From a virus, in the IMG/VR virus record IMGVR_UViG_3300007722_000007, positions 1 to 64,000 of that record: a stretch of 64,000 nucleotides of DNA. One strand, given 5' to 3'. Below, piece by piece: positions 29,226 to 60,100 of this stretch. Below the pieces are notes generated by a model that saw only the letters and a list, made by a program, of their open reading frames with translations, was not told where the DNA came from and did not search any database. How positions within the stretch are numbered: position 1 is the first letter of the stretch; each line of letters opens with the position of its first letter. Both the position numbers and the translations under genes were made by a program.

Positions 29226-32200
29226 ATGACTGACACGCTCTCCCCCATTCGCGATTACGAGTACAAGTCGTTAACCGGTCAATTCAATATAGATGAAGCG
29301 CTTGGGATCATTGAATGCTTCGTGGCGGGCATTGGCAATAAGGATTCCGTCGGGGATGTATGCCTTCCGGGCTGTTTTACGAACTCGCTAAAAAGAAGAA
29401 AGCCACGGGTTGTTTGGGGCCACAATTGGAACGAGCCCATTGGGAAGGTCCTTGAAATATACGAGGTCGGCCCAAACGATCCGCGGCTACCGACAAAAAT
29501 GAAAAAGGCCGGCATTGGCGGACTTTATGCAAAGGTCCAATTTAATCTAAAAGCAGAAAAGGGACGCGAGGCATTTGCTAACGTCGGGTTTTTTGGGTTT
29601 GACCAAGAGTGGTCAATCGGCTACAAAACGTTAGATGCGGTATTTGATAGCACCCAGCAGGCCAACCTATTAAAAGAAGTAGAGCTGTACGAAGTCAGCC
29701 CTGTTCTCCATGGGGCGAATCAGTTGACAGGGACGATATCCATCAAGTCTGATGAGCCCGCCGCGGATCCTGCTAATAATTCAGCACTCGCCGGCCCCAA
29801 TGGTGCTGAGATGAAAAACCAAGTAACTGCGATTTACGAAGCGGTTACCAACCCTATTAATACCGTGGTTGGAAGAGCGGCGGATTTAACGCGGGCGCTG
29901 TCTGCGCACTTTGGCGGCCCCGTTCGCCTGGTTAGTGCCGACCACGATATTGCCATCTTTGAAATGGGAGCCGGACAATCTACGGAAACGATGCGGGCCA
30001 CATACCATTACGACGGTGATGAATTCATGTTTGGAACAGCGCAACAGGTGCGACCAGAAACAATTTATATTCCTATTCATTCTTCGCTGGGTAGCAGGGA
30101 AAATGGGGAAACAATCGCGCCCGGCATCACATTGGCGATGCTACCGGCAATCGGCCAAAATATTCTGGATGTGCTGACATTCTCGGCCGATAAAAAGGAT
30201 AGTTGCTGTGATGAGTGCGCTATCCACGGCGGCTCTTGCGGGGATTCAAAATCGGCGATGACCCTGTCCGAGTTCAAATTAGCGAACCCTGGCACCCATG
30301 TAATTATTAGTCCAACCGATCCGGTGGAATCGGCGGATATTTTTGACACAGTTAGAACGGTTAGCGAATATCACGGCTTCTCAATAAAAATTTTGACCGA
30401 GGGGATTGTTGTTCAAAACTACGACACCCTGCAACCAGATGCCATAACCGCAATCACGACCGTACTCAGCGGCATTGAGGCAAAGGGGCTACGACCAAGT
30501 CTCAATAGACGGCGTACAAACATGAACCCGATGACGGCCCGCAACGCCGACAATGATGAATTTGTCTTAGAGGGAATCCCGACAATTAATAGGGGTCGCG
30601 GGGTTATCGATCCAACGCCGGGGAGCGATGCAAATGTCCCCAATTTGAACCGAAATCGTCGCGGGGCCGAAATGATGCCATCGGTGCCACAGCCGCGCGA
30701 GGTCCCCGAAGAAATTCCTGAAGTTGCGCCAGCGATACCGCGTAGGAAGCCAGACGAAGAACCCGAAAAAGTTCCAGAAAAAGTTCCAGAAAAAGAACCT
30801 CAAAAGGAACCAGGGCGTCCACCACCGATAACCGTTCCACCAGAACGCGAACCATGGAAGACCCCGCCGCGCCCCGTGCCAAAACCGGAACCAGCGCCGA
30901 CGCCGCCACCAAGACCAGTAACGCCTCCGATTCCAGAGCGACCAAGGGTCCCAGATGCACCACCAGTGCCAGTACGGCCACTAGTCCCTGTCGGCCGGGC
31001 AAGCACGGCTAATCCGAGCGGGAGCATGAGCTCTTCTCTTGAGAGCATAGACACCGAGATGGATGCCATTAACCGACGATTAGCTACCGCCTCGCTAACT
31101 AACACCTTTGAAAATACGAACCGTTCAGCTCCGGAATTGATCCGGGACAGACGAAGACTACAGCAGCTGATCCAGCAGCGGTACGCAATTGAGCGGAGTA
31201 GAGGAAACGATGCAAGCTCATTCACTGGGGAAAAACTGCCGGACGCTGTTTCCGCGCGCGGAAACATTGGCGGCTCTAGGCAGGCCCAAGCGGAATTGGC
31301 GAGAAATATATACCTAGCTCGCCAGCACGGTGGGATGTCTCTCGATCAAGCATCACACGAATTTGGAAAAACCAGAGAAGAAATTAGACAGTTGGAAGTA
31401 CGCCACATAAGCTCGCTGCGGAATCTCGGCGAAACTCATCCAAATAGATTGTCGCGCAGAGCGCTGGACAATCCGTCCATCCCGCTTTCTAGCGATTCTA
31501 TCGATTTGTTGAAGCGCAGACTTGATGGGGAGACACTCGACGAAGCAGCACAGAGACTTGGGACTGACAGATATTCCGTTCGTAGATCAGAACAACTAGC
31601 CTTATCAAAATTGCGAAATTTTTTAGAATTAAATGACGATATAGATCTGCCAGTCGGAATGCAATTAGCAATTGACGCGCTGGCAATGGCGGAGGACGTC
31701 AGCGATTTAAAAGACGATAACGCCAATCAGGATTTAACGGATGCGGTACCCGATGTTGTATCGGGGAATTTTGGTACCGATGCCCCAACTGGGTCGATGG
31801 CGTCAATCTTGCGGATGTCATCAGATAATGACAATGAGCGGAGCGGGCCAGACGAAAAATTAAATAGACGCCTTTACGACAAATACGGCGATGACTCGAT
31901 TGATAAACTTGCAAAAGATAACGATCTTTCCAAGAATGAAACTATTGCGCGAATTCGTGGCCATGCAATAAATCTCTCAGCATCCGAGAGCCCGCGACGC
32001 GCCGAGATGCGCTCCCTTGTAAATAGACACCGGGATTCTGTAACGGAATCCGATAGAAGAATATTAAAATTACGCCTCAACGGCGCATCCCTGGTCGACA
32101 CAGCCGACGAAACCGGTTTATCGCGGGAGGAAGTACGGCAACGAGAACAAAAGGCTATTTCTAAGCTTAGGAAACTATCTGGGTTGGCGGATGATCAGCC

Positions 32201-35200
32201 AACGGTGATCCGGTCGACATTCGGAGCCGACGAAAATGGACCTTATATTGTTCAAGCACTGTCGGACGGAACGGAATCAACCCGCACAATCGGGCCAACG
32301 GAATTTGACAAACAGTTTAATTATGCATCCGCAACATCTTCCTTTGATGAATTCGCACGAATATTAGAGGATGATAATTTCAACAGCAGTCCAAGCGGAT
32401 CAATGAAATTCGGCACCAAAAAACACAGGGCCGGCGACTCGGTGGCAACTCTTAATAAAGACGGAGAATACGAGAACTACGACATACAAATTGATAGAAC
32501 GAATCCGGATAAACCGTTTATTCGCGCTCGGCGCGCGTCGTATCCGGAAATTGGACAAAAACCAATTCATGAATTAATTGGCGAGCGTATGCCAAACGGT
32601 CCAGAATTTGATGACGGTCAGAACACTTACTGGACACGCCACCAGGATCATCACGCATTTGTTTCGTCGGCAGAAGCTGATATTCTGGAAATCGCATCAA
32701 AAACAGGACCAATAAAATTTAAGGACGGCATAATCTCCGGTCATTATGTCGACGGTAATGGAAAGGAAATTAATTTCTCGATTACGCCGTCTCTTACTAC
32801 AGGTCGGGATAGCGGCCGGAATCTTGTTTTATTTAATTCCAGCGAAAGCGAATTCGGTATTCAGTTCCACAACGCCGGGAAGGTTGAAAACGTCGTCCCC
32901 AATGTCATTGAAGTGGCGATGTCCGATAAGGAAAAATTGGACGCACTTCTCCAGACCGGTACTGGAAAAAGGCTGGCTACGGCCGGGCGCGGATTAACTC
33001 ATCAATGGTGGAAGCAATCAACATGGCAATTCCGTTATGGAGGTAAAGACAGTGCCTCAAAGACCATCACAAAAGATCCACAGACGGATATTATTGCCCC
33101 AGACGCCGATGACCTAATAGCCAAAGCCGACAGGCTCGGTGTTTTTAACCCAGCCGTGGACATGGGCATTGATCCAAAATCGGATCAGGGCAAAAAACTT
33201 ACCGTTGTCACAAGCATCGCGAACCGATACAGCATGAGTGGGACATTATCAGAAAAACAGTGGGCCTATTTACGAAGCCTACTTAAAGGTTTTGATGACA
33301 GCGGTGTTGCGCCAAGTCGGCAGGGCGCAACAGATATCCCAATCCTCAGGGTTGACGGACCGGAAAACCTACCAGGGCCATCGGACGTGTCGCCAGAAGC
33401 CCCCGAGGACGACACATGGGCGGAGAAACTGGCAAAAGTGGATTCCGTTGATCTTTCCGATATGACGCGTAGTCATGTAGATATGGACACCGGCGAAATA
33501 ACGCGTTATGCAACGGTAAATATCGGTGATACCAGTCGCCAGTCAAACCGGTATGTTGTCGCGGACGAAAACGGCGTTCTTCGTAAATGGAATCATCCAC
33601 GCGGCGCAGATCAGCAGGGCTGGGAAAGAGGCGGAGGATTACATTGGCCGGCAAATGAGGTCGGTGATGAATACGATGAACTGGTAGAGCGTGTTAACTT
33701 CCAGCGCGGTCGGGTTCCAAACGAAGAAGCCGTGATGATAAGTAGTAAGCCGTGGGTAGAGGAAGCAAGATTGCGCAGGGCGTCCGGTGAAGATATAGAT
33801 GCCGAAGATGTTGAAGCTGAATATCGGGAGCTTGGACTTTACGGGATGGACATGACGCGACCGGACGGATGGGATGAAAGCGATACCCATATTACGATAG
33901 GCAGAAATAATACCACCGAGAGCATTGTTGATGCCGTGAGCGCCCATATTAAAACCGGAAAACCGTTGCAATTTGGCTACAATAAAAACGACGGCACACC
34001 AACGACGACGAGAGTTCTGCGTTCGGCGCGGATGGGGAAAAATCCGCATACCGGAGTCCACTATGTCATTGGCGGAGACGGCATAGACGAAAAAAATTAC
34101 CGAGTAGATCGGATAGTCGGCTACGATAAAAATTTAGATAAGAACGCAAGTAAGCCTAAAACTGATCCGCCGAATACGCGATTTAGTGGAGAACGGCAGA
34201 CCGGTGGCGGAAGCGGCGAACGTCGCCCGCGCGATAAGCCAGCCGATTCAGGCGAAGAAGCACGGCGAATACGGGAAGATGAGGCAGACCCCGGCGCCTG
34301 GGGCGACAATGTGGATAATGAAAACGACAGACGATCCAGGGAAAGGGCGCCTCGCGAAGAGAGAGCGCCTCGTGAAGAGAGAGAAGCGCCCAAAAAGGAG
34401 CGCTCCGGAAATACTGCGCCCCGCGAACGGGAAATGATAAGAGTCGGAACACGCGGGGTGATTGGAAAAACTATTGCCATTAGTGGCTCGGTTAATAATA
34501 AGGAAAAAATTGGTCAGTTATTGGATGCGGCTCGTTCTAATAATAGAGTCTCGTTTATGTACGGCAACAAACCGTATACCGTTTCGTTTCTTGATGTCGA
34601 GGCGGGCGCCTCATTATCGGAGTTCTCGGATCTGTGGTTTCTCCACGCTACTGATAGCGACGACAATATACGGAAAAAATTTGATGTCTCTGAGATAAAT
34701 ATGGATAGACCCAATGATCCGGTGGCGTCGGGTAGGGCGATCGGATCAATACTCACCGGCGCAGAGCGAACACCGGGTAGGCGGAATTTTGTCAATATTC
34801 CGCTGGGGGTTATGGTCGCCGACCATAACAGACAGAGGGAACAAGCGCGGATATCGCACAAAAAATCTACCGATTCCACCGACAATTCAATAAGCGGCTC
34901 CATGGACCTCACTCCGACACGAGTCAATAATTATTTTCCTCCGTCATACTGGACACCGAATAAGCATGATGCGAGATACGCAGCAATGCCCCGCGAAGAA
35001 CAAGACCAAGAATTGCAAACGATTATATCCAGACTCCATTCGGATGCCCCCATTGACGCGGCGCAGACCAATGACCTCCTGGATAGATTCGCGGCTATCG
35101 ATCGAGTTATGCGCACGGATGGCAAATCTTACGTCGATGAATTCGGCATAGAAATTGAGAGAGCCCCAAATGGGGAGTATTTGCTTACCGGCAACGTGGA

Positions 35201-37484
35201 TATAAGCGTCTTTGAAATGGCAAATCCGTCGGGTTCAATGGGGCGTTACGCAAGGCCAACTAATTCGTCAGATCGCGCAATGGATGATTCCTATAATGCG
35301 CAAATATACAATGAGCTGAATGATTTAATGTCGTCAACTTCCGATGCGGACGCAATAAGGCAACTTGCTCGTCGCCATGGAACGAGTGAGCATAATATAC
35401 GCAGGCGACTCAATGTGGTCGACAGGGAACGCGCACGTGAAATTTCCGCCCTTGACAGGGTCGGCGATATTCAGGATGATATCGATCGTGGGGATATATT
35501 ATTTGACGACCTAGAAATGACCCTTGATTTAAGCTCATCGGATTTTGACACAGTTAGGAATATCGACTACGTATTAGGCGAGCTCGATCTCAGATACAGC
35601 AGTAATAGCCCCAGCGGGAGCATGGCATTGCGACGCGGCGAGGACCTGTCAAGCAAAACAACGGACGAACTGCGAGAGTTATTTAATGAATCAATTGAAC
35701 AACTCTTTGGATCCGAGAGGCCTCATCCCAAGGATAACGCAACAAGATCAAGGTTTTTGCGGGACATTGAAAATATCGGGTCAGAAATTCAATCTAGATT
35801 CTTGGCCAGTCCAGAAGCCGTAGCAATTAGAAATAATATTAACGGGGATGACCCAAGCGGGAGCATGTCCCTGCATCCAAGTGGAGGTCAACCCAAAATA
35901 CCATTAAGCGGTAGCCGCCTAATCGATAGACGGCTTCAAAATGTGTACGGTCCAGATGATTGGGAATCTGTCGCTTTGCAAATAGGCGCAAGATTCACCA
36001 ACATGGAAAATAGGGACTGGGAAAACCCATCCATGGATGACCTGATGGATCTTCACCACCTACTAGACATGAGGGCCAGTGAAACAATCATAGTCGACGG
36101 CCTCCCGGAGGTTTTTGATGGATTTACCTATGATGTCCTTTCTATCGCCGGCGACCTAGATATAACGCCAGAGAATGTTGTTGGTTATGCGTCGCGGGGT
36201 CGCGATTTGGCCGAAATCAAGCAGATGGCCGGGATGTCCCCATTTGAGCGAGCAGAAAAAATGATCCTGATTGATAGGCGTAAGAAATTTGAAAACATGC
36301 TTGATTTGAAAAAACAAGAGCTCGGCGATGGCTACGACAGCTGGCTCGATAGCGCGGTAGAAATAAATAACGGAATTTCATTTGATGAGAACGGCAATCC
36401 GAGAGACCGGGATTACATAGAATCACGCGGTGGGCCGTATGGCGGGTTTTTCGTATCGCCCGAAACCGGCGAGCCGGCCGATTCTAAATTAAAAGACACG
36501 CTCGGAACTTTCCTTGAAGATCTGTATAACGCCCCGTCATATCAGCCCCCCGGCGGTCCTAGCGGGTCAATGGCCTATATCGAGCAACGTTACGACATTA
36601 GGCCGAATCCAGATGGTTCGTGGTCCATAATTGATACGCATAATAATAATTCGCCGACCGGAGAGGCATACGGAAGACGCGAGGATGCGCTAAGTGCGGC
36701 CAGACGCATGGATAGGGGGCCGAGTACGCAACGGGGCAGTTTGCGTGCGAGAAATTCTCCAAACCCACAAGCCACGCCCGATCAGGGGCCGTCACAAAGC
36801 CCGCCGGCGCAGACTCAAGATTTGACCCAAGAACAGCTGTCGTTTGATGACGGCCCATCTGGGTCAATGATGGGGAGATTGCCTGGAAGTAAATGGATTT
36901 CAAATGACCCTCTCCGCCGCCACGGAGAAGAAGTTACGAAGCGCCATGCCGAAATAGCGATACAGAATTATCATCGTGGCCCAGCTTCAATGCCATTCGG
37001 GGGTGCCGAGGATGCGAGTAATGAAATGCTATTCAAGGGGTGGGTGGTGGCGGACTCGTCCCTAGACACCCTTTTAGGAAGACTTGAATATTTGGATAAA
37101 GTCCATACGGGAGGTTTGGATAGGGGCCGCACGGGGGGCCTAGACAGAACCCGTATGGGTATTCCCGGGGAGCCATTTAGCACGCCGGAAATCAGGGAAA
37201 GTTACCCCGATACACCACTGGTGGATATGACTTCCGCCATCGTAACCGAAATTGGGCATGTTCTGGCATATCTTCTCAAACTACAACGAAGGCGTAATTG
37301 GTTCCATATGAACCTAAAACGGAGAATGGAAAAGACCAATAACTACCTTATGGCCGACCAATTTGATTCAATGAATGACAGCCGAAGCGGGATAGGCCGA
37401 GAGGAGAAAGACTCTTTGGTATCGGGTAAATTCCCACGGTATATATTGCCGTCTATCGTCAGCATGGTTGCGCAAAAATCATGA
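29226..37484 (+). CDS. giant prohead protease (HK97/S78 family) polyprotein with sigma70-r4 HTH and WYL modules
   Basis: N-terminal WGHN...WSIGY...YEVSPV..GAN protease; ~2.5k-aa extension with 9 xSGSM-type motifs; AAGGA RBS before ATG 29226. Confidence 0.88.
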   Translation: MTDTLSPIRDYEYKSLTGQFNIDEALGIIECFVAGIGNKDSVGDVCLPGCFTNSLKRRKPRVVWGHNWNEPIGKVLEIYEVGPNDPRLPTKMKKAGIGGLYAKVQFNLKAEKGREAFANVGFFGFDQEWSIGYKTLDAVFDSTQQANLLKEVELYEVSPVLHGANQLTGTISIKSDEPAADPANNSALAGPNGAEMKNQVTAIYEAVTNPINTVVGRAADLTRALSAHFGGPVRLVSADHDIAIFEMGAGQSTETMRATYHYDGDEFMFGTAQQVRPETIYIPIHSSLGSRENGETIAPGITLAMLPAIGQNILDVLTFSADKKDSCCDECAIHGGSCGDSKSAMTLSEFKLANPGTHVIISPTDPVESADIFDTVRTVSEYHGFSIKILTEGIVVQNYDTLQPDAITAITTVLSGIEAKGLRPSLNRRRTNMNPMTARNADNDEFVLEGIPTINRGRGVIDPTPGSDANVPNLNRNRRGAEMMPSVPQPREVPEEIPEVAPAIPRRKPDEEPEKVPEKVPEKEPQKEPGRPPPITVPPEREPWKTPPRPVPKPEPAPTPPPRPVTPPIPERPRVPDAPPVPVRPLVPVGRASTANPSGSMSSSLESIDTEMDAINRRLATASLTNTFENTNRSAPELIRDRRRLQQLIQQRYAIERSRGNDASSFTGEKLPDAVSARGNIGGSRQAQAELARNIYLARQHGGMSLDQASHEFGKTREEIRQLEVRHISSLRNLGETHPNRLSRRALDNPSIPLSSDSIDLLKRRLDGETLDEAAQRLGTDRYSVRRSEQLALSKLRNFLELNDDIDLPVGMQLAIDALAMAEDVSDLKDDNANQDLTDAVPDVVSGNFGTDAPTGSMASILRMSSDNDNERSGPDEKLNRRLYDKYGDDSIDKLAKDNDLSKNETIARIRGHAINLSASESPRRAEMRSLVNRHRDSVTESDRRILKLRLNGASLVDTADETGLSREEVRQREQKAISKLRKLSGLADDQPTVIRSTFGADENGPYIVQALSDGTESTRTIGPTEFDKQFNYASATSSFDEFARILEDDNFNSSPSGSMKFGTKKHRAGDSVATLNKDGEYENYDIQIDRTNPDKPFIRARRASYPEIGQKPIHELIGERMPNGPEFDDGQNTYWTRHQDHHAFVSSAEADILEIASKTGPIKFKDGIISGHYVDGNGKEINFSITPSLTTGRDSGRNLVLFNSSESEFGIQFHNAGKVENVVPNVIEVAMSDKEKLDALLQTGTGKRLATAGRGLTHQWWKQSTWQFRYGGKDSASKTITKDPQTDIIAPDADDLIAKADRLGVFNPAVDMGIDPKSDQGKKLTVVTSIANRYSMSGTLSEKQWAYLRSLLKGFDDSGVAPSRQGATDIPILRVDGPENLPGPSDVSPEAPEDDTWAEKLAKVDSVDLSDMTRSHVDMDTGEITRYATVNIGDTSRQSNRYVVADENGVLRKWNHPRGADQQGWERGGGLHWPANEVGDEYDELVERVNFQRGRVPNEEAVMISSKPWVEEARLRRASGEDIDAEDVEAEYRELGLYGMDMTRPDGWDESDTHITIGRNNTTESIVDAVSAHIKTGKPLQFGYNKNDGTPTTTRVLRSARMGKNPHTGVHYVIGGDGIDEKNYRVDRIVGYDKNLDKNASKPKTDPPNTRFSGERQTGGGSGERRPRDKPADSGEEARRIREDEADPGAWGDNVDNENDRRSRERAPREERAPREEREAPKKERSGNTAPREREMIRVGTRGVIGKTIAISGSVNNKEKIGQLLDAARSNNRVSFMYGNKPYTVSFLDVEAGASLSEFSDLWFLHATDSDDNIRKKFDVSEINMDRPNDPVASGRAIGSILTGAERTPGRRNFVNIPLGVMVADHNRQREQARISHKKSTDSTDNSISGSMDLTPTRVNNYFPPSYWTPNKHDARYAAMPREEQDQELQTIISRLHSDAPIDAAQTNDLLDRFAAIDRVMRTDGKSYVDEFGIEIERAPNGEYLLTGNVDISVFEMANPSGSMGRYARPTNSSDRAMDDSYNAQIYNELNDLMSSTSDADAIRQLARRHGTSEHNIRRRLNVVDRERAREISALDRVGDIQDDIDRGDILFDDLEMTLDLSSSDFDTVRNIDYVLGELDLRYSSNSPSGSMALRRGEDLSSKTTDELRELFNESIEQLFGSERPHPKDNATRSRFLRDIENIGSEIQSRFLASPEAVAIRNNINGDDPSGSMSLHPSGGQPKIPLSGSRLIDRRLQNVYGPDDWESVALQIGARFTNMENRDWENPSMDDLMDLHHLLDMRASETIIVDGLPEVFDGFTYDVLSIAGDLDITPENVVGYASRGRDLAEIKQMAGMSPFERAEKMILIDRRKKFENMLDLKKQELGDGYDSWLDSAVEINNGISFDENGNPRDRDYIESRGGPYGGFFVSPETGEPADSKLKDTLGTFLEDLYNAPSYQPPGGPSGSMAYIEQRYDIRPNPDGSWSIIDTHNNNSPTGEAYGRREDALSAARRMDRGPSTQRGSLRARNSPNPQATPDQGPSQSPPAQTQDLTQEQLSFDDGPSGSMMGRLPGSKWISNDPLRRHGEEVTKRHAEIAIQNYHRGPASMPFGGAEDASNEMLFKGWVVADSSLDTLLGRLEYLDKVHTGGLDRGRTGGLDRTRMGIPGEPFSTPEIRESYPDTPLVDMTSAIVTEIGHVLAYLLKLQRRRNWFHMNLKRRMEKTNNYLMADQFDSMNDSRSGIGREEKDSLVSGKFPRYILPSIVSMVAQKS
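30522..30620 (+). repeat. 33-aa shared motif, copy 1
   Basis: MNPMTARNADNDEFVLEGIPTINRGRGVIDPTP. Confidence 0.95.
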
Positions 37485-39443: not shown

Positions 39444-39457
39444 ATCGGCGGTGCGGC

Positions 39458-42400
39458 ATGGCCGACGCCGAAAACACAAAATCCCATAACGACGTTCGTC
39501 AAAACCGACGAACACACCGTAAATCAAATTTTCTGACTTCGCAAAAGGGCATCGGTTCGCCAATCGGCGGCCCCCAGAGGGACATGAACCCCGCCACGGC
39601 GCGGAATGCAGATAATGATCTATTCGTCCTAGAGGGAATCCCGACAATTAATAGGGGTCGCGGGGTTATCGATCCGACCCCGACTGGCTCAATGGCTGGT
39701 AGCAAGCGCTCTAAGCGCCGCAAGGCTCGCAAGTTTGTCAACGATCTAATCGGCGACAGCGATGTTACTGATCCAGAATTTGACTCTGCGGATATTGACG
39801 AGGATACCCCGCTATCGCTATTGGATTACGAACAGGATAGTTTGTTCCCAGAAGACGATTTCATCGTACGGCGTTCTGGGGTGCCAGAGATTTTTGAGGA
39901 TGAACCTTGGGATGATTCCGTTGATTACGCTAGCGCCTGGCGGGAATATTTAAGAAATTCCGGCCTGGATGACACGATCGATCCGAATGATTTTGACATA
40001 GACGAATCAGACCTAGCGGCACTGCCATTTTATAAGCCCCAAAGTGACATACTCGGCAGAACGTATCCGGGAACGAGCGTAGCGAAGCCCTCATCGGGTC
40101 CCAAGAAATTTGACGATTACCATAATAAAACGAAATACGCTGGGGATAGATATGTAATCACGCAACAGGCCTTAACGCTGGCTAGACACCGGGATTTAGT
40201 CGCCAAATCACGATGGGACACAATCCACAATGCACACTACGACTGGTGGGCATTTCCGATTGACAGGGGCAGTGGAGGGTATGGAAATAAATATAATATC
40301 GCCGGCAAACCGCTTTCTAGGCTGAAAAGAAATAAACGATTTCTGAACAATGTGGCTGAGGCAATTCATATCCAAGCACTAGCCCTTGGTTGGGATATTG
40401 ACACAGATGACTACATCGCCGATATTGATTGGGATACAGGACAGGACCCATGGCTCGCATACCCAACACGATTTTGGAAAATGACTCGCTCTGCTCAAAT
40501 ACTAGGTCTAGATAAGGAATTTAACTCGCTCTTGTTATTGCAGGCTTCGTTAAGCGAGGGCGGAATCAGATTTGGTAGACGCGAGTACTGGGATAACCCG
40601 GGGCCCCCAGGGGATAGCACGCCGCTCAAAAAACGGAAATATGAATATGGCGACGGAACGGTTTCTGGGTCGATGGCCGGCAATAAAAAAAACACCGACA
40701 GCAATTGGAGAGGCGATTTTTCCGAGCAGTTGGCATCCGGATTTGTTGGCGGTATGGCCGGACTGCGCAAACGCATGAAAAGCGACTCATTAATTGCCAA
40801 TCCACTCCATGAGTATTTTTTACAACGGACCACATCCATGGGTGACAACCCGACCACCGGTCGGCGACCCAGCGACCTAGTGATAAATCCCTATGCTGGG
40901 GAAAACATAATCGGCGCCGCCGAAGCGCGCGATTGGTTTGATTTTGCGATCATGCTAAATGACACGCAATCGTGGGTGCTGGAAAACGCCAACAATGGGG
41001 AGCAAATAAATGATGGTTTATTTTTCCAGAATTCTTTCCCGCGGATGGCTTTGGCAAAACTATTGATGGGCCAGATGGGACGCGACGATTCCGAAATGAA
41101 TACAGTTGCAAATCTGCGACGCGCAGGAAGAAAGATGATGGCGGAAAATAATATAGACGGAGCCGATTTCCCTATTCTTGCTGGAGATATTGCAAACCCG
41201 TTTATTAAGAAAGTTGAATCTACCCCGAACGGCTGGTTAGTTACACGCCATGATGACGCCAGGAAGCTGTGGTTTTGGTTTAGGGACGAAAGGGAACAGG
41301 CGCTGGCGGACCTCGGCCGCGCAATAACTAAAGATAGACAGAAAAACAAATTAGCCGATCCAGCGCAATGGCTAGACGGATCAGGCGTTAAGGCATTTTT
41401 CAAAAATCGAGCGAGCAAGCAATCGCCGATAATCGGCCCGCTAGGCGGCTCGACTCCGAAACGAATGGAACTAAGTAAAATTACTTTACCGCCTGGGCGA
41501 TTTGCTAATAGGGACAAAATTGCAGCTCTGCGGAATAACGGCAATTTCAACAATCATGCCAATCCGGTTGATACTTGGTTAGATAATGTTTCCCGCGGGG
41601 ACGCACTGCTGAGTGGCCGCAGGCCTATCCCGTCGACCCGATGGCCGATGGACGAATTAGAGACCCGCGATTGGTTTGACTATTGGCTGATGCTGTCTGA
41701 CTCATTGCCGGAAATAACCGCACGAGATTTTGAGGTGCTAAGAGAAGCTGGGCCGCATATTAGAACTAGCCCGAATGAATGGCTACCCCAGGATGACGAA
41801 CAGTGGAATGAAAACAAACTGATTAACGAAACCCAACGGCGCCATGACAAGGTTAAATTTGTAATGGCCGAAGCACTCAAATATCTCTCTGCGCTTGCGC
41901 GGCCTGACGAAAATGATAATAACGATGTGGTTTGGGAAGACATGCGCAACGCCGGCCAGTCGATTAATCAACGATGGGGGATTGACGCACAAATAAATGC
42001 CGAAATAAATCTTGCGGAAATGCAAGGCAGGGATTGGCCATTTAGGGAATATGTCGCTCCGGAAAAATTGAACAAAGATGTAATTAAATTTGGGCAACTG
42101 GGTAATTTTGCCACTGCGACACCAGACGGATGGATTGTAAATACAAAACACGCAGATGGAGAAATGAAACCCCGTGCTTGGCGCATTTCTGATTCCGAAA
42201 GAGATTCCCTATACGACATGATCGGGGCCATATTAAATACGGGCGAAGAGAATTCTCCGCTTGGTGTCGATAATGCCACCGGAGACTCCGAATTAGATCT
42301 GGGCATGTTTCTGGAAAACCGAGCACAATTTTTCAAATCCGACGAACCGACTTTTAAATACTCAAATCGATTCGGCGACGATGACGATGCCCCCAGCGCA

Positions 42401-43231
42401 CGTTCTAGAATGTTGTCATATACAGACTCCGACCAGGCAGGCGACTATGTCGATGTTCGCTTACCGCATACAACAAGGCCCACCAGGCCCCACTCCAGGG
42501 AATGGGACACTAGCGACCTAAATGACTATGAGACAATTTTGGCCGATGGCAGGGTAACCCTATATGGTGACGATCAGCCTGACTTCCCAGATCAATATAA
42601 TGCAGGGGCCAACCCAATAACGCTTAGCCAAATCGGGATTAAAAACGGCCGATTGGCTGAAAATCTCAATCAAATTATCGGCCCGATGGATAAAGATGAG
42701 CGTAACGGAAATTTTGATTTTTTGATAATGCTCAATGACACCCTGACGCCAACCGCAGCCAATGCATTGGGCCGTTCGCCAAGCATTTTGATGCAGACCG
42801 TCTATGAAATGATTGGGGCAATGGCCCGCAACTCCGACCAAGTTGCTGGGGATGCGGATTCGCCAGCTGCGATAAATCTTGTCAGAAACACCAATATCGC
42901 ACTCGCGCAAATGATTGGGCTCAATAAGGACGGCGGGATGCGCAGTACCCGCCGCGGCTTCTTGATTCCTAAAAACTATGGGGGAATTAGGGAGTCCAGG
43001 AATTGGCGGATTGACGAAAATGAGCGGACCGCATTGATGGACGAAATAGGAAAGATGCTAAGATCTGATGGGACACTTGATCTGGAAGCTCTGGCCAAAT
43101 TTCTAACATCTCGGAGAAAGCGGTTTTCCCCAAAATCGCGCAGATTTATTAGCCCTGAGGCAATAAAGGAACGCCGCCGACGCTACTTTGACGAACGGTA
43201 TCAGAGGGACAAGAAAAACAATGAACAATAA
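39458..43231 (+). CDS. giant multi-module protein (OGFr/DUF1810-like module plus a triplicated unknown domain)
   Basis: 1257 aa; 33-aa tag, two xSGSM motifs, HYDWWAFP, three WFD..ML.D repeats. Confidence 0.75.
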   Translation: MADAENTKSHNDVRQNRRTHRKSNFLTSQKGIGSPIGGPQRDMNPATARNADNDLFVLEGIPTINRGRGVIDPTPTGSMAGSKRSKRRKARKFVNDLIGDSDVTDPEFDSADIDEDTPLSLLDYEQDSLFPEDDFIVRRSGVPEIFEDEPWDDSVDYASAWREYLRNSGLDDTIDPNDFDIDESDLAALPFYKPQSDILGRTYPGTSVAKPSSGPKKFDDYHNKTKYAGDRYVITQQALTLARHRDLVAKSRWDTIHNAHYDWWAFPIDRGSGGYGNKYNIAGKPLSRLKRNKRFLNNVAEAIHIQALALGWDIDTDDYIADIDWDTGQDPWLAYPTRFWKMTRSAQILGLDKEFNSLLLLQASLSEGGIRFGRREYWDNPGPPGDSTPLKKRKYEYGDGTVSGSMAGNKKNTDSNWRGDFSEQLASGFVGGMAGLRKRMKSDSLIANPLHEYFLQRTTSMGDNPTTGRRPSDLVINPYAGENIIGAAEARDWFDFAIMLNDTQSWVLENANNGEQINDGLFFQNSFPRMALAKLLMGQMGRDDSEMNTVANLRRAGRKMMAENNIDGADFPILAGDIANPFIKKVESTPNGWLVTRHDDARKLWFWFRDEREQALADLGRAITKDRQKNKLADPAQWLDGSGVKAFFKNRASKQSPIIGPLGGSTPKRMELSKITLPPGRFANRDKIAALRNNGNFNNHANPVDTWLDNVSRGDALLSGRRPIPSTRWPMDELETRDWFDYWLMLSDSLPEITARDFEVLREAGPHIRTSPNEWLPQDDEQWNENKLINETQRRHDKVKFVMAEALKYLSALARPDENDNNDVVWEDMRNAGQSINQRWGIDAQINAEINLAEMQGRDWPFREYVAPEKLNKDVIKFGQLGNFATATPDGWIVNTKHADGEMKPRAWRISDSERDSLYDMIGAILNTGEENSPLGVDNATGDSELDLGMFLENRAQFFKSDEPTFKYSNRFGDDDDAPSARSRMLSYTDSDQAGDYVDVRLPHTTRPTRPHSREWDTSDLNDYETILADGRVTLYGDDQPDFPDQYNAGANPITLSQIGIKNGRLAENLNQIIGPMDKDERNGNFDFLIMLNDTLTPTAANALGRSPSILMQTVYEMIGAMARNSDQVAGDADSPAAINLVRNTNIALAQMIGLNKDGGMRSTRRGFLIPKNYGGIRESRNWRIDENERTALMDEIGKMLRSDGTLDLEALAKFLTSRRKRFSPKSRRFISPEAIKERRRRYFDERYQRDKKNNEQ
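39584..39682 (+). repeat. 33-aa shared motif, copy 2
   Basis: MNPATARNADNDLFVLEGIPTINRGRGVIDPTP. Confidence 0.95.
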
Positions 43232-43329
43232 CCGAATAATACCCATCGGCACCCTGTTCCAATTGTCATACGGTATTCCTATGCTAATTTGTTATCGGGT
43301 CTATAATTGGATCACGCAGAGATGCAGTG

Positions 43330-49611: not shown

Positions 49612-51688
49612 ACGACATGAAGCAGCGGAGTGCGTTGGCTGTATCAAGTCCGGGGAATCCCGGACTCGCAAGCTCATGCCGGCGATGGCAATTTCTCGAC
49701 CAAACATTTATTTATTGCCCCTTCTGATTCTTAACGATAAACAAAAGGCAATTGAATTTAAATGCGCCCAAATGACGGCAGCAGGGAAAAACATATCGGC
49801 CTACGATCAGAGCGTGCGTTTTAAGGCCGACATAATCAATATAAACCTTCCCTCAACTCAGGAACTAAAGTCAGTTGTTGCTCCGATCGTTCCTGGTGGG
49901 AGGGCAAATCCAATACGCTCAACGGCATGGTCTCTTGCCATCCCGGGTGGCCGCGGTGGAGCCCCAAACGTACTTGCACGCACGCTTCCCGGACAGGTTA
50001 AGCCGACACGCGGCTTTCGGTGCCCGGAAGGATTTCAATTTGGGGGCAGGTTTACGGACAAATATTACAGCACATGCGGCAAACAGCTTTTCCAGTTAGC
50101 GCTATCTATCGCCAATCAATTACTGAATGTAGGCACCATCGCGGCGGATAATTCACCACGGGAAATTTCAATAAATGGCAGACCGGTGCAAGCCTTAAAG
50201 CCCAATGGTCAAACGTCATCAATACGGCGCCCGAATATTTTAATACCAAAAGTGGGGCGAATGAATTTCGCTCTTTACAAACAAGCAATCGGTAATGTCG
50301 TTGCCGAAATGTCTACCGTTAATCGTCGACTGGCACGAATGGTAAGGCGGGATGGCGTTGTTTTGACACCGGTTGTTTCCGCAAGTGTGTTACGCACCGT
50401 TCCGGACTCGCGGGATATGGAGGGGGCCTCATATATTATCAATGCCGTCACCCCGTCAGACATCGGTCGTTCCGAACTTGGAATGCTGTCGAATACCGGA
50501 GTTACCCAGCTTCTCTACGTCCTGCCAGACGGATCATCTATTTCATTGCGCAAAAAACGAAACCTATCCCCTGGGGAAAGTCGCAAACTCGGGAAAACCA
50601 TCGCAAGCGCAGAATCAATGCGAGCTAGTTCAAACCCGGCAGGTCGTCTTGAAATGATTGCCGCAGAAATGAATGGGGCCATGGCGTATGAACAGCAATT
50701 CGTGAATGCATCTGGCGCGAATGACATAATTGAAGTTAATGTACCTGGATCAAAAACGCCAAAGCAAATGCGTCGCTGGTATGCGGAGGCCTTCAAAAAA
50801 ACAAATGTCGCTAAAATTAAAAAGGTGAGAAAAACGCAAATTGAAGACGAGGCGGGGTTTGTTGAAAGTCTTGACGAAGCGCTTAATCTAATTTCAAATG
50901 GTGGGCAAATAGGGAATATCCGGCCACATATCCGCGCAACGGCTTTGGCAAAAAGCTCAATTGTCGACTCCAAAAAAATAAATTCTAAAATTACCGAGCA
51001 CAGTCTCGATCGCCAAAAAATTCTTGAAGTTTCGCCGACCACGGAATTTGAACATCTCGGGGCAATGTTTTCATCCGAGGTCCAGGCACATTTAGGACTA
51101 GCATCAACAGACATTTGGTTCGCCGGGACCGGAACCCGAAGGCCGTATTTGGTTTCTCTTCCGGAAGATGCGATTTCCGGTGGCCGTTCGGCAAGGGGAT
51201 CTGGTTTGAAATCGGCAAATCCATCGGATATTGCGACCCTGTTTATTGCGGACCTTTTAACCGACACCAGAATGCGTAATCCGTCATCCATATTCACGAT
51301 CGACACGGGGGCGGCCGTACGAAGCTTCGGTTCTCCGGTCATATCCGCAGGACTCGCCGGACTATCGATAAAAGAAAAAACCGCACGTATCGGCATGCCG
51401 ATAAATAAATTACTTTTAGAAAATGATAAATTAACATATCGTTATTACTTCGCCGAAATCAACGCAAGACAGAAGAAGATAGTGCTTGAAATGCTGGAGC
51501 GCCTACTGAGCAAAGCCAACAATTTCAATTTCGCAGATTTCGCCCAAAGACTCACAATTGACGGAGAACTTACAGACGCCGAACGGAACCACCTCACGAT
51601 ACTTAAACAACTATACGAAACGCGTGTTCGCCGGCTGTTAGGGTCCGTCGGCGCAATTAAGAATTTTATCGGTGGCGCAAATGAATAA
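49604..51688 (+). CDS. large protein with RC..GGRFT tag and a possible degenerate HipA/PI-kinase-like C-terminal domain
   Basis: ~695 aa; RCPEGFQFGGRFT; ADLLTDTRMRNPSSI; TTG start inferred from a GGGAG RBS. Confidence 0.6.
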   Translation: MSKRHEAAECVGCIKSGESRTRKLMPAMAISRPNIYLLPLLILNDKQKAIEFKCAQMTAAGKNISAYDQSVRFKADIININLPSTQELKSVVAPIVPGGRANPIRSTAWSLAIPGGRGGAPNVLARTLPGQVKPTRGFRCPEGFQFGGRFTDKYYSTCGKQLFQLALSIANQLLNVGTIAADNSPREISINGRPVQALKPNGQTSSIRRPNILIPKVGRMNFALYKQAIGNVVAEMSTVNRRLARMVRRDGVVLTPVVSASVLRTVPDSRDMEGASYIINAVTPSDIGRSELGMLSNTGVTQLLYVLPDGSSISLRKKRNLSPGESRKLGKTIASAESMRASSNPAGRLEMIAAEMNGAMAYEQQFVNASGANDIIEVNVPGSKTPKQMRRWYAEAFKKTNVAKIKKVRKTQIEDEAGFVESLDEALNLISNGGQIGNIRPHIRATALAKSSIVDSKKINSKITEHSLDRQKILEVSPTTEFEHLGAMFSSEVQAHLGLASTDIWFAGTGTRRPYLVSLPEDAISGGRSARGSGLKSANPSDIATLFIADLLTDTRMRNPSSIFTIDTGAAVRSFGSPVISAGLAGLSIKEKTARIGMPINKLLLENDKLTYRYYFAEINARQKKIVLEMLERLLSKANNFNFADFAQRLTIDGELTDAERNHLTILKQLYETRVRRLLGSVGAIKNFIGGANE

Positions 51689-54600
51689 GTTCCAGCTCGT
51701 AATAGATGGGTCAAATAATTCCGCGTATGGGGTGATTGCCACGATCGCCAACGCAGATAAATACATCGGCAATATGTCACACGGTGCAGATTGGGCTAAG
51801 TGGGCTGGAAAATCGGGTTTTAGGAAGCTGGAGATAATCGAATCACTTGACATGCACTTGTCCCTTGGCGATGTCATCCCGTTATCTAGTGATGAAGTTT
51901 TGAAATTAAAAAGCCTGCTTAGCGATAGCGCGTTTGGGGCACTGAGTAACTTTGTCGAACAGAATCTATTATTAACCAAAAATAATCCAGAGCCAGAAAA
52001 TCTGATTGAGGACGACGAGCCAGAATACGAACTTGTTGCCGATTGGCCAATTACCGATATCGCCCTAAGTCTGATCGAGGTTCAGTTTAAGATGAACGCC
52101 GTTCACTACAAGGCGAAGTCGTTCATTTCGGACTCATCGGCATCTTCTTTTTCACTTAGCACAAAGGGCGTGCGAGCAATGTGGGACCCTAATTTTCCTG
52201 GTGGTGGCAGATGGCGCTGCCCTCCAGAAAGTGGATACACCGCCGGCCAATTTACCAATAGATTTGGGCGGGGGTGTTTGCCCGGCGCAGCTCGCAGAAT
52301 AGGCCGAAGAATGCTGTCCCTTGCTGATGCCGGCGTACTAAAGCGGACCCTAGGAGACCGTGGCGGGATACTTGAGGCCAGGGGATTTTTAAGGGACGAG
52401 CGTGGACTGGCCGCCGCTGGGAGACGTTCGGCCAACCGGATTGAAAGACAGGGGCGTCGCACCGAAAGGCGCATTGCGGGATTGGCCAAAGATACCGATG
52501 ATTTAAATAATCCAAATCCTCAGCGCCCAGCCGCAAATCGGTCAGAACGACGCAAAAAACGAGGCAACAGACTCGCCGCGTTTGCTGATCGGCTGACAGG
52601 AGAGCGGGTAACCCCAAGAAACAATCAAGCGAACCAACCAGATAATCTCGCAGATGAATCCCCTGTAACTGTTTCCACGGCGCGCATGAATCGGAGAATT
52701 AACAATAGCGCCAAGCCATTAGAGCTTGAACCGGGCACGGTATTAACCGATGAAAGAAACACCACCGATCAACTATTACTCGACCAGGGTTTCGCCGAGA
52801 TTGAGCGAAGTTTAGATGAGATTGAACAAAGTTTAGATGATAATAAACTCCGTAGAAAAAGGCGAAGCAAAACTCCAGTACGCCCACACATAATTGACAG
52901 AATCAGTAAGCGTCGCCAAGACGGCAGATTGCGGATTTCCGATGTGCGCCCCAGGGTCAGGGAAACCCGCGGCCCAGATAATATCGGGCCGCGAGAGACA
53001 ATGCGCGAACGAGCCGCCTTACGGCTTGAAAGACTGGCCCAAAGATTAACGGCCAGAAATAACCGTACGGTTACGCCGAACACAACTATCCAAAGTCCGG
53101 AACCGGCGGTCAATAGCCAATTAGGGCAACGGGCGCGGATGAGGCAGGTAGTGCTAAGTAAGGATAGTCCACGGCGGGTACTGTACGGCAATATCATTCC
53201 GTCGCAACGCACAGCGCGGAATCTAAAGGGGTGGGAAGCATATACCGCTATCGAGCAACAATCATTGGAGGCGTCAGCTACGAAAGCGCAAAAGCGCCTC
53301 ACTGACGGCTGGAGGACGCGGTTGGGGCTGTCTCCGGCCGACAATTTGGACGAAGACGCAATTGACACATGGATGAAGGCATTAACGGTACGCCAGCCCC
53401 GAAAAGCCGCCGTACTCCAGAACCAGGCTCACAACGCCGTTATCCTTGATGATTTCCTTGACCCAATAACATCTAATACATCCAAATTAAAAACTGAAAA
53501 TTGGGCCGCAATCAAGCCGGCCATGAGAGAGTGGATCATCGCTGATGCCGGTTTAACGGCCCCAGCGCGTGTATCCCCAAAATCACGTAAAACGCCCGTA
53601 CCGAATAAGCCTCCGCAGCGACCTCGGCTAGTACGGTCTGGCGGTCAGCTTGCATTGCCGCCAGGGCCAGCGCCGACACAGGGCAATCTTGTTCCGGACG
53701 CCGACGTGGTGGATGACGAATTGGTATTTGATACTCAGCCGGAGCCAAACAACGAACTTGCACCAGTCGGGGTCGATGTAGTTACAAGCACAAATGAACA
53801 CGGGACAATTGACGCTGCAGAAAACGCCTTGTTCATATATGAAGAAAATACGAAACTATACAGAGACCCGATTTCCGGCATGTATAAAGAAGACTATAAA
53901 GACTTGCCGATAACAATAGATACGGAAGTGAACACAATGCAGCCGTTGCCCCTGATGCAGCGGAAAAAGAAAAATGGGGCCATCGTCTCGTATCCGAAAA
54001 TTCGTAATCACCAAGGGTTTGTTGGTGGCAAGGCCGTCATAGTGCAGCTGTCACTCGCTCCAAACACAACAAGGCCCGGAGAGGGTCACAGCGTTTCAAC
54101 ATGGGCCGAAGCAAGAGGGGCTATCTGGAATGATTTGCCGGAAAGCGTTAAACGCGAAAATCCAGGAATAGAAATCGTAGAAATACCCAGAATAAACGGA
54201 GTACAGCAAACAGCCGACACCGTTAGTTCATTTAATAGCTCTCGGCGCTCAAGCTACCGCAATAGCACGGAAATGGCGGGAACCGATATTTCAACCCAAG
54301 ATGTATTTCTTAGAACGCGAACAAGCTCGTGGAATTTTGGCCACACCGATGTCGCTATGGTGATCTCTTCCGTAAACACGGCCCTTGTCAGCAATCAACC
54401 ACAAGACTGGATGAAGGCCTGGGCGAAACTTAAAAGCGTGCACGCCGATGCGACTAGAAAGCTGGAAGCTTCCCTCACCGAGTGGAGAAGGCCGGACAAT
54501 AAAAATAATTCCCGCCAGCGTCGCGAGTTCGTGCTTGCCGGAGACCTAGCGGAGACCGTTGAGGCAATTATAGAACGAGTTATGCCTTCGGTTTTTCCGA

Positions 54601-56117: not shown

Positions 56118-56126
56118 ACTTAGATT

Positions 56127-56552: not shown

Positions 56553-57091
56553 ATGACGGGAATCAAAAAAGACAGGCGTTAAAAATCGCCAGGTATATGG
56601 GGTGCTCCGGCGTCCACAAGGGCAACAAGGGTGAGTGGATGCCGTGCGCCGATCATGATACCCTACAGAGACTTTCGCAAGCCGCGGAGAGCGACTCATG
56701 GCTGAAAAAACAATCGGCAAAATCTGGGCAGTACGGTACCGCCGGAACCGTCCAAAAACGTAGTGCGAAAGGGGGAGGACGTAGCCCAACATCCGAAAAT
56801 CAAATTGGCAAAATAGGGGGAACCAGGAAATATTTGGCCATAAAAAGAAATAAGCCAATTGTGCTCCCCCGATCGGCGATAATTCAACGTCTTGGCAGTT
56901 TGGACAACGGTTCCCCACGAAGATCAAAACGCAAGGCGCGGGGTGCCAAATGGGAGCGTTTAACCGAACGCGGGGTAATTGGCTTGTCGTCCCTGGACGG
57001 CGGCGGAATAGTTTCCGCGAGTGCACTTTCAAAAATGTTTAGCGTTTCTGACGGCAAAAGAAAATACTTAAATCAATTCCCCACAGCGTAA
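56549..57091 (+). CDS. basic hypothetical protein with GCxGxH...WMPC motif
   Basis: ATGA overlap start; motif shared with the next ORF. Confidence 0.7.
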   Translation: MNDGNQKRQALKIARYMGCSGVHKGNKGEWMPCADHDTLQRLSQAAESDSWLKKQSAKSGQYGTAGTVQKRSAKGGGRSPTSENQIGKIGGTRKYLAIKRNKPIVLPRSAIIQRLGSLDNGSPRRSKRKARGAKWERLTERGVIGLSSLDGGGIVSASALSKMFSVSDGKRKYLNQFPTA

Positions 57092-57126
57092 TCTCACGCT
57101 ACCTTCCCGCGTTCACCAATATTATT

Positions 57127-57135
57127 GGTACGATA
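57127..57135 (+). promoter_or_regulatory. extended -10 promoter candidate
   Basis: TGgTACGAT in the intergenic gap ~33 nt before ATG 57169. Confidence 0.35.
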
Positions 57136-57168
57136 AACGCACACGAAGTATTCTGACGCAGGGATAAT

Positions 57169-60100
57169 ATGGCCGAAAATACAGACACTGGTGACTGCTG
57201 TCCCATCGCCCCAGATGATGGCGCCGACCAGATAAATCAAAAATCAGTAGGATTCGGGCCTCGCCGAGTTCGGTCCGACGGCCACGATGTCTTTGTCGAT
57301 AAAGAGTCCGCCCGGGAAAGATCTCGCCAGCTCGGCTGCATCGGGATTCGTCAGTATAATTCTGTTTCTGGGGGATTTGTTTGGATGCCGTGCTCTAATG
57401 AATCAGATTACCGACGGGTAACCGGAGTGGGAGTTTTAGCCGGACGAAGATCAGAGCGGGATTTGTCTAGACGTATTGCCAGAATACTAAAGAAAAAAAC
57501 CGACGAAGTTAAGGCACTTGGTCCACCGATCGGCGGACCTCAACGGGATATGAATCCAGCTACGGCGCGAAATGCCGATAATGACCCATTTGTCCTAGAG
57601 GGAATTCCAACGATAAATAGGGGTCGCGGCGTTATCGACCCGACCCCCGGCTCGGACGTCGCCATCCCCGCTCCGTCAACGCCTGACGCGCCAGAATTAA
57701 GCGATACCGCTAATCGAGCAAGCGATATTGATGGCCCCGATCTACCGACACGCCCAGATCCGGGCGCTGCCCCTAGTGATAAACCGTCCATAGCGCGTTC
57801 TCCTAAAAAGCCATCAACGCGCCGAGCGTCAATCGCTCCGACAGACTCCCTGGCTCCCAAAATTGACACCGAACCCAGAAGGAACACAGCTAGAGATACT
57901 GTACCTGCCGCTACGGGAGCAATGCGTGGCGACAAGGTCACTCCGGCTAGATTCATATTACCGGAGAATGACGAACTTGTTCGTCGCGTAAAAGGCGCAA
58001 TTGCCAAATGGCTTGATGGAACCCCGGAGCGCGAACGCAGTAATTTGCTTCAGCGGAATGACAGAAGTGGGCGCAACAATTTCTTCGCCCAGATGTACCA
58101 AGACGACGCCGCGCGGTCGACGCTGCGGAGTTTCATATGGGGTGATATAGAAACCGCAGATGCGGCGGTTGCCTATTGGGGTGGCCAATTTGCGGATTCG
58201 GCAGACCGCGTCATCACCAAAATCGATACCGGGACGCTTAACGAGGCCGACTACGTGGATGCTTTTAGGTTATACCAAAAAGCCGTCTCTCAGGCGCCTG
58301 ATTTTTCACGGGGGATCATGGACACGTACGCAGTGGCTGATCCCGGAATTGACGAAGAAGTTTTATTTTCCAACCTGTCCGGATGGACGCTGCCAACAAC
58401 GATTGAAAGCATGACCCCGAATACCACTCCACTTCAGTCATTTGGGGCTCAGGGGATTATAGCGATAACGGATATTTTTAGGGCGGCGGTTAGCCAATTA
58501 AAGTTTCCCGTGCAACGCGAAAATGCGCAAACCTTTCCGGAGGGGAATAAACTTCGTGCCGGTTTTACCGCAAACCGCGCCGTCTACCCGCATGACTATG
58601 GAAATGTCTTATTGCGACGCCTGCTCGATGTATCAAATTCCGTCCGTAACGCTAATAGCGAGCCAATACGCGAAACCATCCTTGGGTCGGCCCTGAATTC
58701 ATTCGCAATGTATGTCGCGGCGCATGGCGTTCTGGTCCATGATTCAGATTTAATGGATAGCTCATTTGGAATAATGAACAATCTTCTTGAACAGTTACTA
58801 GCTGACAAAGAATCAACTGCCGTACTAGCAAAAATGGGACAATTATTTGATTTGCTAGATACGCATCTTGTTGATTATACCGAAGCTAGAAGAAGAGCGC
58901 GCTTAGAAATAATTGCCGCTGCGAAAGAAAATGGATTATTGAGGAAAAGTGAGGACTTATTTGATAACGATGTGCCGCTTGCTGTCGCAGAGCATCTTGA
59001 CAACTCAAAACAAGCATTTTCTACAAGAAATGAGCATGTCGCCGCGGTTATAGCGCCGATTGGCGAAGATAAGTTGCGAAGAGTAATGCGGGACATTTTC
59101 GCGCGCAACAATTATTTAGACGGGAGCACGATAGAGAAATATTCCCCAGCTTCTCCCGGTGACGCCATAGCTCTCGCTTCCGAATTAAATCCCCCGCAAA
59201 GGGACAGGAATATTACCAGGCTCAGCACGGAAAACGCAAAAGCATTTGAATCTATTACCTCATATCTCTATTCTGATAATCCAATATTTTTGGTCGACAA
59301 CAACGACCAAATCCAACTATGGGCAAATTTATTGCAATACGGCAAACGCCGAATGTTACACCGCACCCTGAAACAAATGAGCCCCAAAAAACGCGCTGAG
59401 TTTATGGCCGTAGACCCTGAGACGGCCGATGTCCTTCTTGACTCGGCCAAGGAATCATGGCTATCCCACAGACAGATCAACGAGGGGTTCGGCCCCGACA
59501 ATTATCCGCTTGATGACAATATCAACGCCACGCTGACAAACTATCCGATCGAGGATGTTCATTACAGAATCCCGCAGCGCATTACGGATAGCTCCTCTAA
59601 TCCGCTTGTCCTGATAGCTAACGCCCTGCGCCTTCGCCAGTATCAGCTGGACCGAGTCAACAATAACGATTATACAAATTCCATACGAGCCTTAATCGAC
59701 GGCCTTCTCGGTGGCAATCCAAAACAATCAAACAAAATTTTTGATTTAATGATTCTGCCATCGCCCGCCGCGCTTTTAATTGACCGCTACGCGAATAGCA
59801 TCCCCAACTTTTTACACACGCTGGGAGAATATGATAACGACATTCAGGGCAACAATCGTGGTCAATTTAGAAATAATGATTCGGTATACCCCAATACAAT
59901 GACGGCCCTTGGGGTTTTGGGGGACGCAAAACACGCACTTGCCGGGCTTGCCGGGAACATGGATGAATATGCCAATATGGCGTCACGGCGAATGGTGCTT
60001 ATTACGGACGATTTAATTGATCGAGAAAATTACGACATTGATCCACTGGTTGAAAACTACCTAAACGCCGCCCCTTTTGGGTACGGTCCGAGTGGATCCA

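Follow-up and report, generated by a model that had tools for sequence, protein, structure and literature searches.

We analyzed a window of 64,000 nucleotides (nt), the first 64 kb of a 74,450-bp viral contig in IMG/VR (IMGVR_UViG_3300007722_000007; completeness estimate, ~50%) from an uncultured tailed phage of the myovirus type. From 26.9 kb onward, plus-strand genes encode, in order, a portal protein fused to a MuF domain (portal-MuF), g2758 (with an S78 protease at its start), g607, g1257, g1748, g217, g703, g1481, g141, g189, g5437, and the capsid protein, whose gene directly follows that of g5437 and is interrupted by the contig end. Three of these proteins, g2758, g1257, and g5437, are giants that carry near their start the same peptide of ~45 residues, which we call the tag and which is the subject of this report (Table 1).

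Translation and alignment of the three copies revealed that 31 of the 33 columns of a 33-amino-acid (aa) core are invariant, as had been stated in the original prediction, made by a model from the DNA alone. The upstream PIGGPQRD noted in that prediction is indeed common to copies 2 and 3. A K-[G/A] site, predicted to lie ~12 aa ahead of the core, was found 12-13 aa upstream (aa 426, 30, and 115 in g2758, g1257, and g5437), and each tag precedes the first of the [ST]GSM sites that join the modules of these proteins (aa 603, 75, and 974, respectively), again as proposed. The core follows the pattern NP-x-TA-x-[DN]AD-x-D-xx-VLEG ... GRG-xx-DPTP, usually with K-[AS]-L-G ahead. In g2758, the tag lies downstream of the protease and a conserved middle domain. 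A long linker follows the tag in g2758 and g5437, Pro-rich in g2758 and Pro-rich or charged across the two, while in the g1257 family a P-x-G-x-M joint follows directly.

Table 1. Tag copies, their carriers, and related features, in window coordinates
Feature	Position	Strand	Details
Large terminase (TerL)	24322-26652	-	Upstream of portal-MuF
Portal protein with C-terminal MuF domain	26923..29142	+	Candidate tag receptor
g2758 (2758 aa)	29208..37484	+	S78 prohead protease (HK97-type) at aa 16-193, conserved middle domain, tag, modules set off by nine [ST]GSM sites
Tag copy 1, in g2758	30483..30626	+	K426-G site, 12-aa spacer, core 30522-30620
[ST]GSM joints	31020-36861, 39686, 40667, 44284, 46450, 60094-63999 and beyond		
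g607	37620-39440		
g1257, tagged cargo protein	39458..43231	+	Two [ST]GSM sites
Tag copy 2, in g1257	39545..39694	+	K30-G site, core 39584-39682, TGSM site directly after
g1748	43327..48573	+	Fusion of a tag-2 protein and a formerly tagged protein; HExxH in each half (aa 668, aa 1377)
Tag-2 cassette (RC-x9-RFT-x6-C), in g1748	44023..44082	+	
Decayed tag, in g1748	46168..46290	+	aa 948-988; K948-VLG and DxDxDG-like Asp-rich loop kept, VLEG...DPTP half lost
Tag-2 cassette, in g703	50018..50077	+	
Tag-2 cassette, in g1481	52215..52277	+	Within ~30 residues of the slot where the G006, G008, and G010 orthologs carry tag 1
g5437, tagged giant (5437 aa)	57169..64000	+	Runs to contig position 73479; 12 GSM sites
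Tag copy 3, in g5437	57511..57654	+	K115-A site, core 57550-57648, after a DUF3721-like N-terminal piece

Tag identity is maintained at the protein level

In an all-against-all BLASTP comparison of the large proteins, the tag was the sole match among g2758, g1257, and g5437 (46-55 aa; E values of 1e-14 to 1e-22). Because nothing else matched, the carriers are otherwise unrelated at the BLASTP level, and the earlier description of them in those terms stands to that extent. The DNA of the three copies differs at 15-22 of 99 nt, and nearly all of these changes are synonymous (10-17 synonymous versus 1-2 nonsynonymous codon differences between copies). Since nonsynonymous divergence (dN, 0.014-0.06) is far below synonymous divergence (dS, 0.67-3.0), tag identity is maintained at the protein level, and these codon comparisons indicate that the tag is under purifying selection. 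Copies 1 and 2 share an identical run of 46 nt, and the sites at which they differ are concentrated in the first half (Fisher p 0.005). Thus, these two copies were probably joined by one short gene-conversion tract.

The tag had no match in Pfam, PHROG, or PADLOC over aa 426-475 of g2758 and aa 30-80 of g1257, or in Pfam alone over aa 115-165 of g5437. Literature searches turned up no description of it.

Tagged genes lie between portal and capsid genes of related viruses

A profile hidden Markov model (HMM) built from the three copies and searched against 1.84 billion representative proteins (E<=0.001) gave 37 matches, 35 true and 2 false on inspection. The true proteins have a median length of 1853 aa and a maximum of 6391 aa, and 33 of the 35 reach 850 aa or more. 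All 35 carry an N-proximal tag, once per polypeptide; it starts at a median residue of 61 (median relative position 0.03) and never past residue 528. Comparison of 31 diverse copies revealed 14 invariant residues, among them those of the D-x-D, V-L-E, G-R-G, and D-P-T-P elements. When IMG/VR was searched with the back-translated GRG..DPTP pattern, 40 of the 42 places found were true tags, often several per contig. No tag was found in 185,579 prokaryote genomes (one per species), and hence no prophage copy was seen; a tblastn search of the cultured phages in INPHARED (50,697 records) also revealed no tag, giving one chance match only.

We compared the window with the related records G001 (complete, 174 kb), G006, G008, and G010 and with the more distant G011-G014, of which G012 is complete (138 kb). 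The first four have the same gene order as the window, with all 3-6 tagged genes on one strand in the interval from portal-MuF to the capsid gene. Two tagged genes lie between the portal/protease and capsid genes in both G011 and G012. G013, without a portal or protease match, and G014, without a capsid match, are fragments in which the placement of the tag genes cannot be judged. At most other tag-bearing loci, the neighbors are portal, protease, TerL, or other head-block genes, and in most genomes the protease chain carries one tag copy. Since the placement is portal-to-capsid and the neighbors elsewhere are mostly of the head block, the tag, which was found on viral contigs only, is not broadly distributed among non-virion proteins. 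This is the outcome expected from the original prediction, which had called for such a search.

An identity matrix revealed that the tags are homogenized within the window's genome (G000) and within G006, where they are far more alike than orthologous copies are between genomes. In G008 and G010, tags instead cluster by ortholog, and two subtypes exist side by side.

Tagged carriers are chains of modules separated by conserved joints

Among the g2758 modules are a WYL domain and a sigma-70 region 4 domain. Beyond the window, at contig 70.7-73.5 kb (L087:13500-16311), g5437 ends in Clp_N, NUDIX, and Zeta-toxin kinase modules, each between two PSGSM joints. The [ST]GSM motif occurs 24 times in four giants, compared to 0.24 occurrences expected from shuffles, and never in other head-block proteins. 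The giants of G001, which are ~30-40% identical, have P-x-G-x-M at positions aligned to [ST]GSM, and thus the joints are conserved. The Pfam and PADLOC domains (Sigma70_r4, WYL, Clp_N, NUDIX, and Zeta_toxin) fall one per module. As the joints are enriched, conserved, and enclose one domain per module, they are probably processing sites. By their domain matches, the modules of tagged carriers appear to be of kinds typical of injected effectors.

Two further features of g2758 emerged from alignment. Ten relatives contain a highly conserved insert of ~110 aa between the protease and the middle domain (alignment A5, columns 240-350), which g2758 lacks. In all of these, the middle domain is followed by a conserved four-cysteine cluster (CC..C...C).

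A decayed tag and a second cassette occupy tag positions

A separate gene of ~950 aa in G006, G008, and G010 corresponds to the C-terminal half of g1748, the half with the second HExxH motif, and carries a full tag close to the start. In the window and G001 (g1748 and h1759), this metallopeptidase half is fused to the upstream protein, and a decayed tag lies exactly where the orthologs carry the full tag. The original prediction had singled out a divergent relative of the tag here, at 46219-46287. Its position and orthology support that identification, as three related genomes have the full tag at this site, although the remnant itself gives no significant match to the tag HMM. The remnant is best read as indicating that the tag is dispensable once a chain rides on another protein; the alternative is that change ran in the opposite direction, with a tag gained on fission.

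Large proteins that lack the tag (hereafter tag 1, where the two must be told apart) carry a second cassette near their start. This tag 2, found in g1748, g703, g1481, and their orthologs, is unrelated to tag 1 and consists of ~20 aa with two cysteines (RC-x(8-10)-[RQ]FT-x(6)-C). Orthologs of g1481 have a conserved N-terminal domain of ~200 residues that is followed by tag 1 in G006, G008, and G010 and by tag 2 in the window and G001. As read from these orthologs, the exchange shows that the tag behaves as a swappable cassette.

The tag is a probable linear motif with a flanking cleavage-like site

AlphaFold2 predicted no fold for the tag alone, modeled with 31 aligned copies (predicted local distance difference test [pLDDT] score, 56.7), which suggests that the tag is a flexible, probably unstructured linear motif. 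Since no fold is predicted for the isolated tag, it fits a docking peptide, a result that names no partner. The calcium-binding loop raised as a possibility in the original prediction fits the 31 copies in part. The tag keeps D/N1, D3, D5, and V8 of the EF-hand/DxDxDG loop pattern but departs from it at position 6, which varies among copies where the loop has Gly, and in its invariant Glu, which stands at position 10 rather than 12.

In most tag copies, K-[AS]-L-G lies 12-13 residues upstream. The N-terminus of mature HK97 gp5 is SLGS, and an EFK-[AS]-L motif is conserved after the delta domain in 5 of 5 capsid proteins of the group. Cleavage by the S78 protease just upstream of the tag would fit the tag's K-[AS]-L-G, the gp5 start, and the capsid motif, although we regard this assignment as uncertain. 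We also considered the tag as a copy of the capsid protein N-arm and rejected this idea: the common part is K-[AS]-L-G only, and the tag HMM misses the capsid protein even with filters off.

Other features of the window

The full-length ortholog of the window's capsid protein matches HK97 gp5 structures (E 1e-50). The minus strand encodes a contractile-tail module (sheath, tube, and baseplate wedge), recombination genes, ParB/PAPS-reductase genes, and TerL, which contains a LAGLIDADG-type insert. The insert (LAGLIDADG_3 match at TerL aa 350-404) falls between the ATPase and nuclease halves and is probably an intein or homing-endonuclease insert. At 17645-20163 on the same strand, a PAPS-reductase-like gene has a ParB-like nuclease gene on each side, an arrangement that suggests a DNA-modification module.

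Within the head block, 18-nt tandem repeats in g607 (38161-38268) encode acidic AEAEDA-type units, and the C-terminal 300 aa of this protein are well kept in relatives (63-78% identity). We looked up g607 and g217 in the ESM Atlas as possible receptors. The g607 search led to viral clusters in which 12-14% of members have PepSY, a peptidase-inhibitor domain, and we consider this a weak lead, as we do the result for g217. A DUF3721-like motif scores above the Pfam cut-off in g189 (56522-57091), with a weaker instance ahead of the tag in g5437, in its N-terminal piece (57300-57405).

Discussion

On balance, we favor a model in which the tag is a modular address label that binds a common procapsid receptor, such that each free-standing multi-module cargo chain is loaded once and then processed. 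The original prediction of an address tag is in keeping with our comparative data, namely the occurrence on viral contigs only, the portal-to-capsid placement, the N-proximal position, the presence once per chain on 2-6 proteins per genome, the effector-type modules, the decay on fusion, and the exchange with tag 2. The likeness it drew to the capsid-targeting sequence (CTS) of phage T4 holds in role only.

In such a model, all tag copies would bind one receptor inside the assembling procapsid. With cargo chains of such size (0.1-0.7 MDa), the capsid delta domains, present in the hundreds, would be a less plausible receptor than one of low copy number, for which the twelve MuF domains fused to the portal are an example. 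Once the procapsid is assembled, the S78 protease would cleave at the HK97-like K-[AS]LG site immediately ahead of the tag, and either this protease or packaged zincin (HExxH) peptidases would cut the chains into modules at the P-x-G-x-M joints. One tag would load a dozen modules, to be delivered together with the DNA.

Several observations weigh against this model or parts of it. The ~800-aa protease protein of the G012 clade carries no tag, so not every internal head protein requires one. The packaging of the tagged proteins is itself deduced from gene position and domain content. AlphaFold2 modeling of g2758 residues 1-481 with 11 orthologs was too poor to judge docking in cis (mean pLDDT 37.5, with the tag at ~27-30). 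The fusion with tag decay and the swap between tags 1 and 2 each rest on one evolutionary event, separating G000 and G001 from the clade of G006, G008, and G010, so both cases are suggestive rather than statistical. As for the cleavage, several protease-linked tag copies lack K-[AS]-L-G, and a profile alignment places the HK97 cut in the capsid protein ~28 residues past EFK-[AS]L, so that the site assignment is uncertain.

The presence of two cassettes raises a more speculative version of the model, which we hold to be possible but doubtful. Tags 1 and 2 would form a two-letter loading code, docking to different procapsid receptors (e.g., portal-fused MuF and the capsid delta domain), and every free-standing cargo chain would need one of them, with up to about a dozen effector modules per tag diced in the sealed head at P-x-G-x-M. 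Injected protein cargo would then take up roughly one third of the genome.

A different possibility is that the tag is an exosite that recruits the S78 protease for the adjacent K-[AS]LG cut and has no part in loading. We think this unlikely as the whole explanation, although such a function can coexist with an address label. The K-[AS]-L-G 12-13 residues ahead of most copies, resembling both the mature gp5 start and the phage's own capsid motif, is what an exosite would call for, and a cut at this site in g2758 would release the protease from the cargo. However, the capsid protein, the one certain substrate, has no tag, and the K site is missing from several protease-linked copies. Moreover, many tags lie 15-30 residues from the N-terminus, where a cut would remove a trivial peptide, and neither the decay of the tag after fusion nor its replacement by tag 2 is explained.

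The tag could also act after assembly, as a signal for ejection or translocation through the portal and tail or by binding a target or membrane in the host once injected. We give this idea little credence. It would account for an N-proximal tag on every cargo chain, set in flexible, Pro-rich, or basic surroundings, and the Asp-rich DxDxD loop and GRG could conceivably bind metal or nucleic acid. Against it, the joint that immediately follows the tag in the g1257 family would, if cut in the head, part the tag from its cargo before ejection, and a host function needed by each module would not be expected to decay on fusion.

Still less probable, in our judgment, is a motif for homotypic or heterotypic co-assembly that bundles all cargo chains, the protease polyprotein included, into one internal body. 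That copies within G000 and within G006 are far more alike than orthologs between genomes, as if they needed to match, and that the protease chain of most genomes bears one copy would both be expected of such a motif. The coexistence of two distinct subtypes in G008 and G010 and the untagged protease of the G012 clade would not, and AlphaFold2 reveals no self-folding or strand-forming unit. Finally, we strongly disfavor a recombination cassette that does nothing at the protein level and was propagated by module shuffling or gene conversion: the 46-nt identity of copies 1 and 2 and the homogenization within genomes are outweighed by dS near saturation with dN of 0.01-0.06, by 14 invariant residues in 31 diverse copies, and by a position that is always N-proximal and always in frame.

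Capsid-targeting signals are known experimentally from few model phages and are short, poorly conserved, and hard to spot by sequence. Because the tag is long, sharply defined, and present on several proteins per genome across an uncultured phage group, it would allow cargo to be predicted from sequence alone. If the address-label model is correct, ~28 kb of the contig (three chains, 9452 aa in total) is injected payload, and a single label suffices for loading many effectors in one chain. As a portable element, the tag is a candidate for loading foreign proteins into HK97-type shells. The cases of tag decay and tag swap yield concrete, falsifiable predictions.

Comparison with known systems

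The closest cultured relative is Streptomyces phage Gilgamesh, with 35% identity in both portal-MuF and the capsid protein. Its gp46-gp53 block likewise places a 4624-aa protein (gp48) between the portal-MuF and capsid genes. However, gp48 lacks both the tag and [ST]GSM joints, and its similarity to the window giants is below detection. We also sought a shared tag-like motif in Gilgamesh; HPRD..GRF occurs only once in the 42-kb region examined.

The window resembles phage HK97 in its S78-family protease and in an HK97-type capsid protein with a delta domain. In HK97, the protease region downstream of the catalytic domain reportedly directs encapsidation, a finding ascribed to Duda, Oh, and Hendrix in 2013. 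The window differs in that its post-protease region holds a peptide also present on other proteins. Another HK97-fold shell, that of the encapsulins, is loaded through conserved, usually C-terminal peptides of ~10 aa and has no portal, protease, or DNA. Like the tag, these are short conserved peptides on cargo, although the sequences are unrelated.

The tagged carriers also resemble the polyvalent proteins of phages and conjugative elements, multi-domain effector chains encoded beside portal and terminase genes, linked to MuF, and including zeta-toxin kinases and metallopeptidases, which are predicted to be packaged and injected (Iyer et al., 2017; PMC5512222). Unrelated effector-type domains likewise occur on single chains here (Sigma70_r4 and WYL in g2758; Clp_N, NUDIX, and Zeta_toxin in g5437; two HExxH motifs in g1748), and TerL and portal-MuF lie directly upstream of the giants. 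In contrast, neither an address peptide common to several proteins nor conserved joints between modules were found in the passages of that account searched for them, and the MuF domain of the window is fused to the portal protein rather than to cargo.

Loading by a peptide has been demonstrated for phage P1, in which the N-terminal 30 residues of DarB, a 250-kDa multi-domain antirestriction protein, are enough to bring a reporter into a head that is HK97-like and has no scaffold (PMC9024508). No consensus emerged when the authors compared the Dar proteins (PMC9024508), whereas the tag is one conserved sequence on 2-6 proteins per genome over many genomes. In T4, the CTS of IPI-III and Alt is a short N-terminal peptide, associated with a prohead-protease cut, that is common to several proteins packaged in the head and injected (PMC7411985). 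The tag is likewise a short peptide shared by several proteins, N-proximal in each, with a head location that for the tagged chains is predicted from gene position. The two have no sequence similarity. The CTS is ~10-20 aa long, loosely conserved, and at the extreme N-terminus, while the tag is ~45 aa long, strongly conserved, and may lie as far as 570 residues in, on carriers of 850-6400 aa. The proteases also differ in type, as the CTS is cut at an L/I-x-E site and the tag phage has an S78/HK97-type protease, with K-[AS]-L-G and P-x-G-x-M as flanks. By analogy, then, the tag may be a capsid-targeting signal on polyvalent cargo, with a role known from the T4 CTS and P1 DarB and a sequence that is new.

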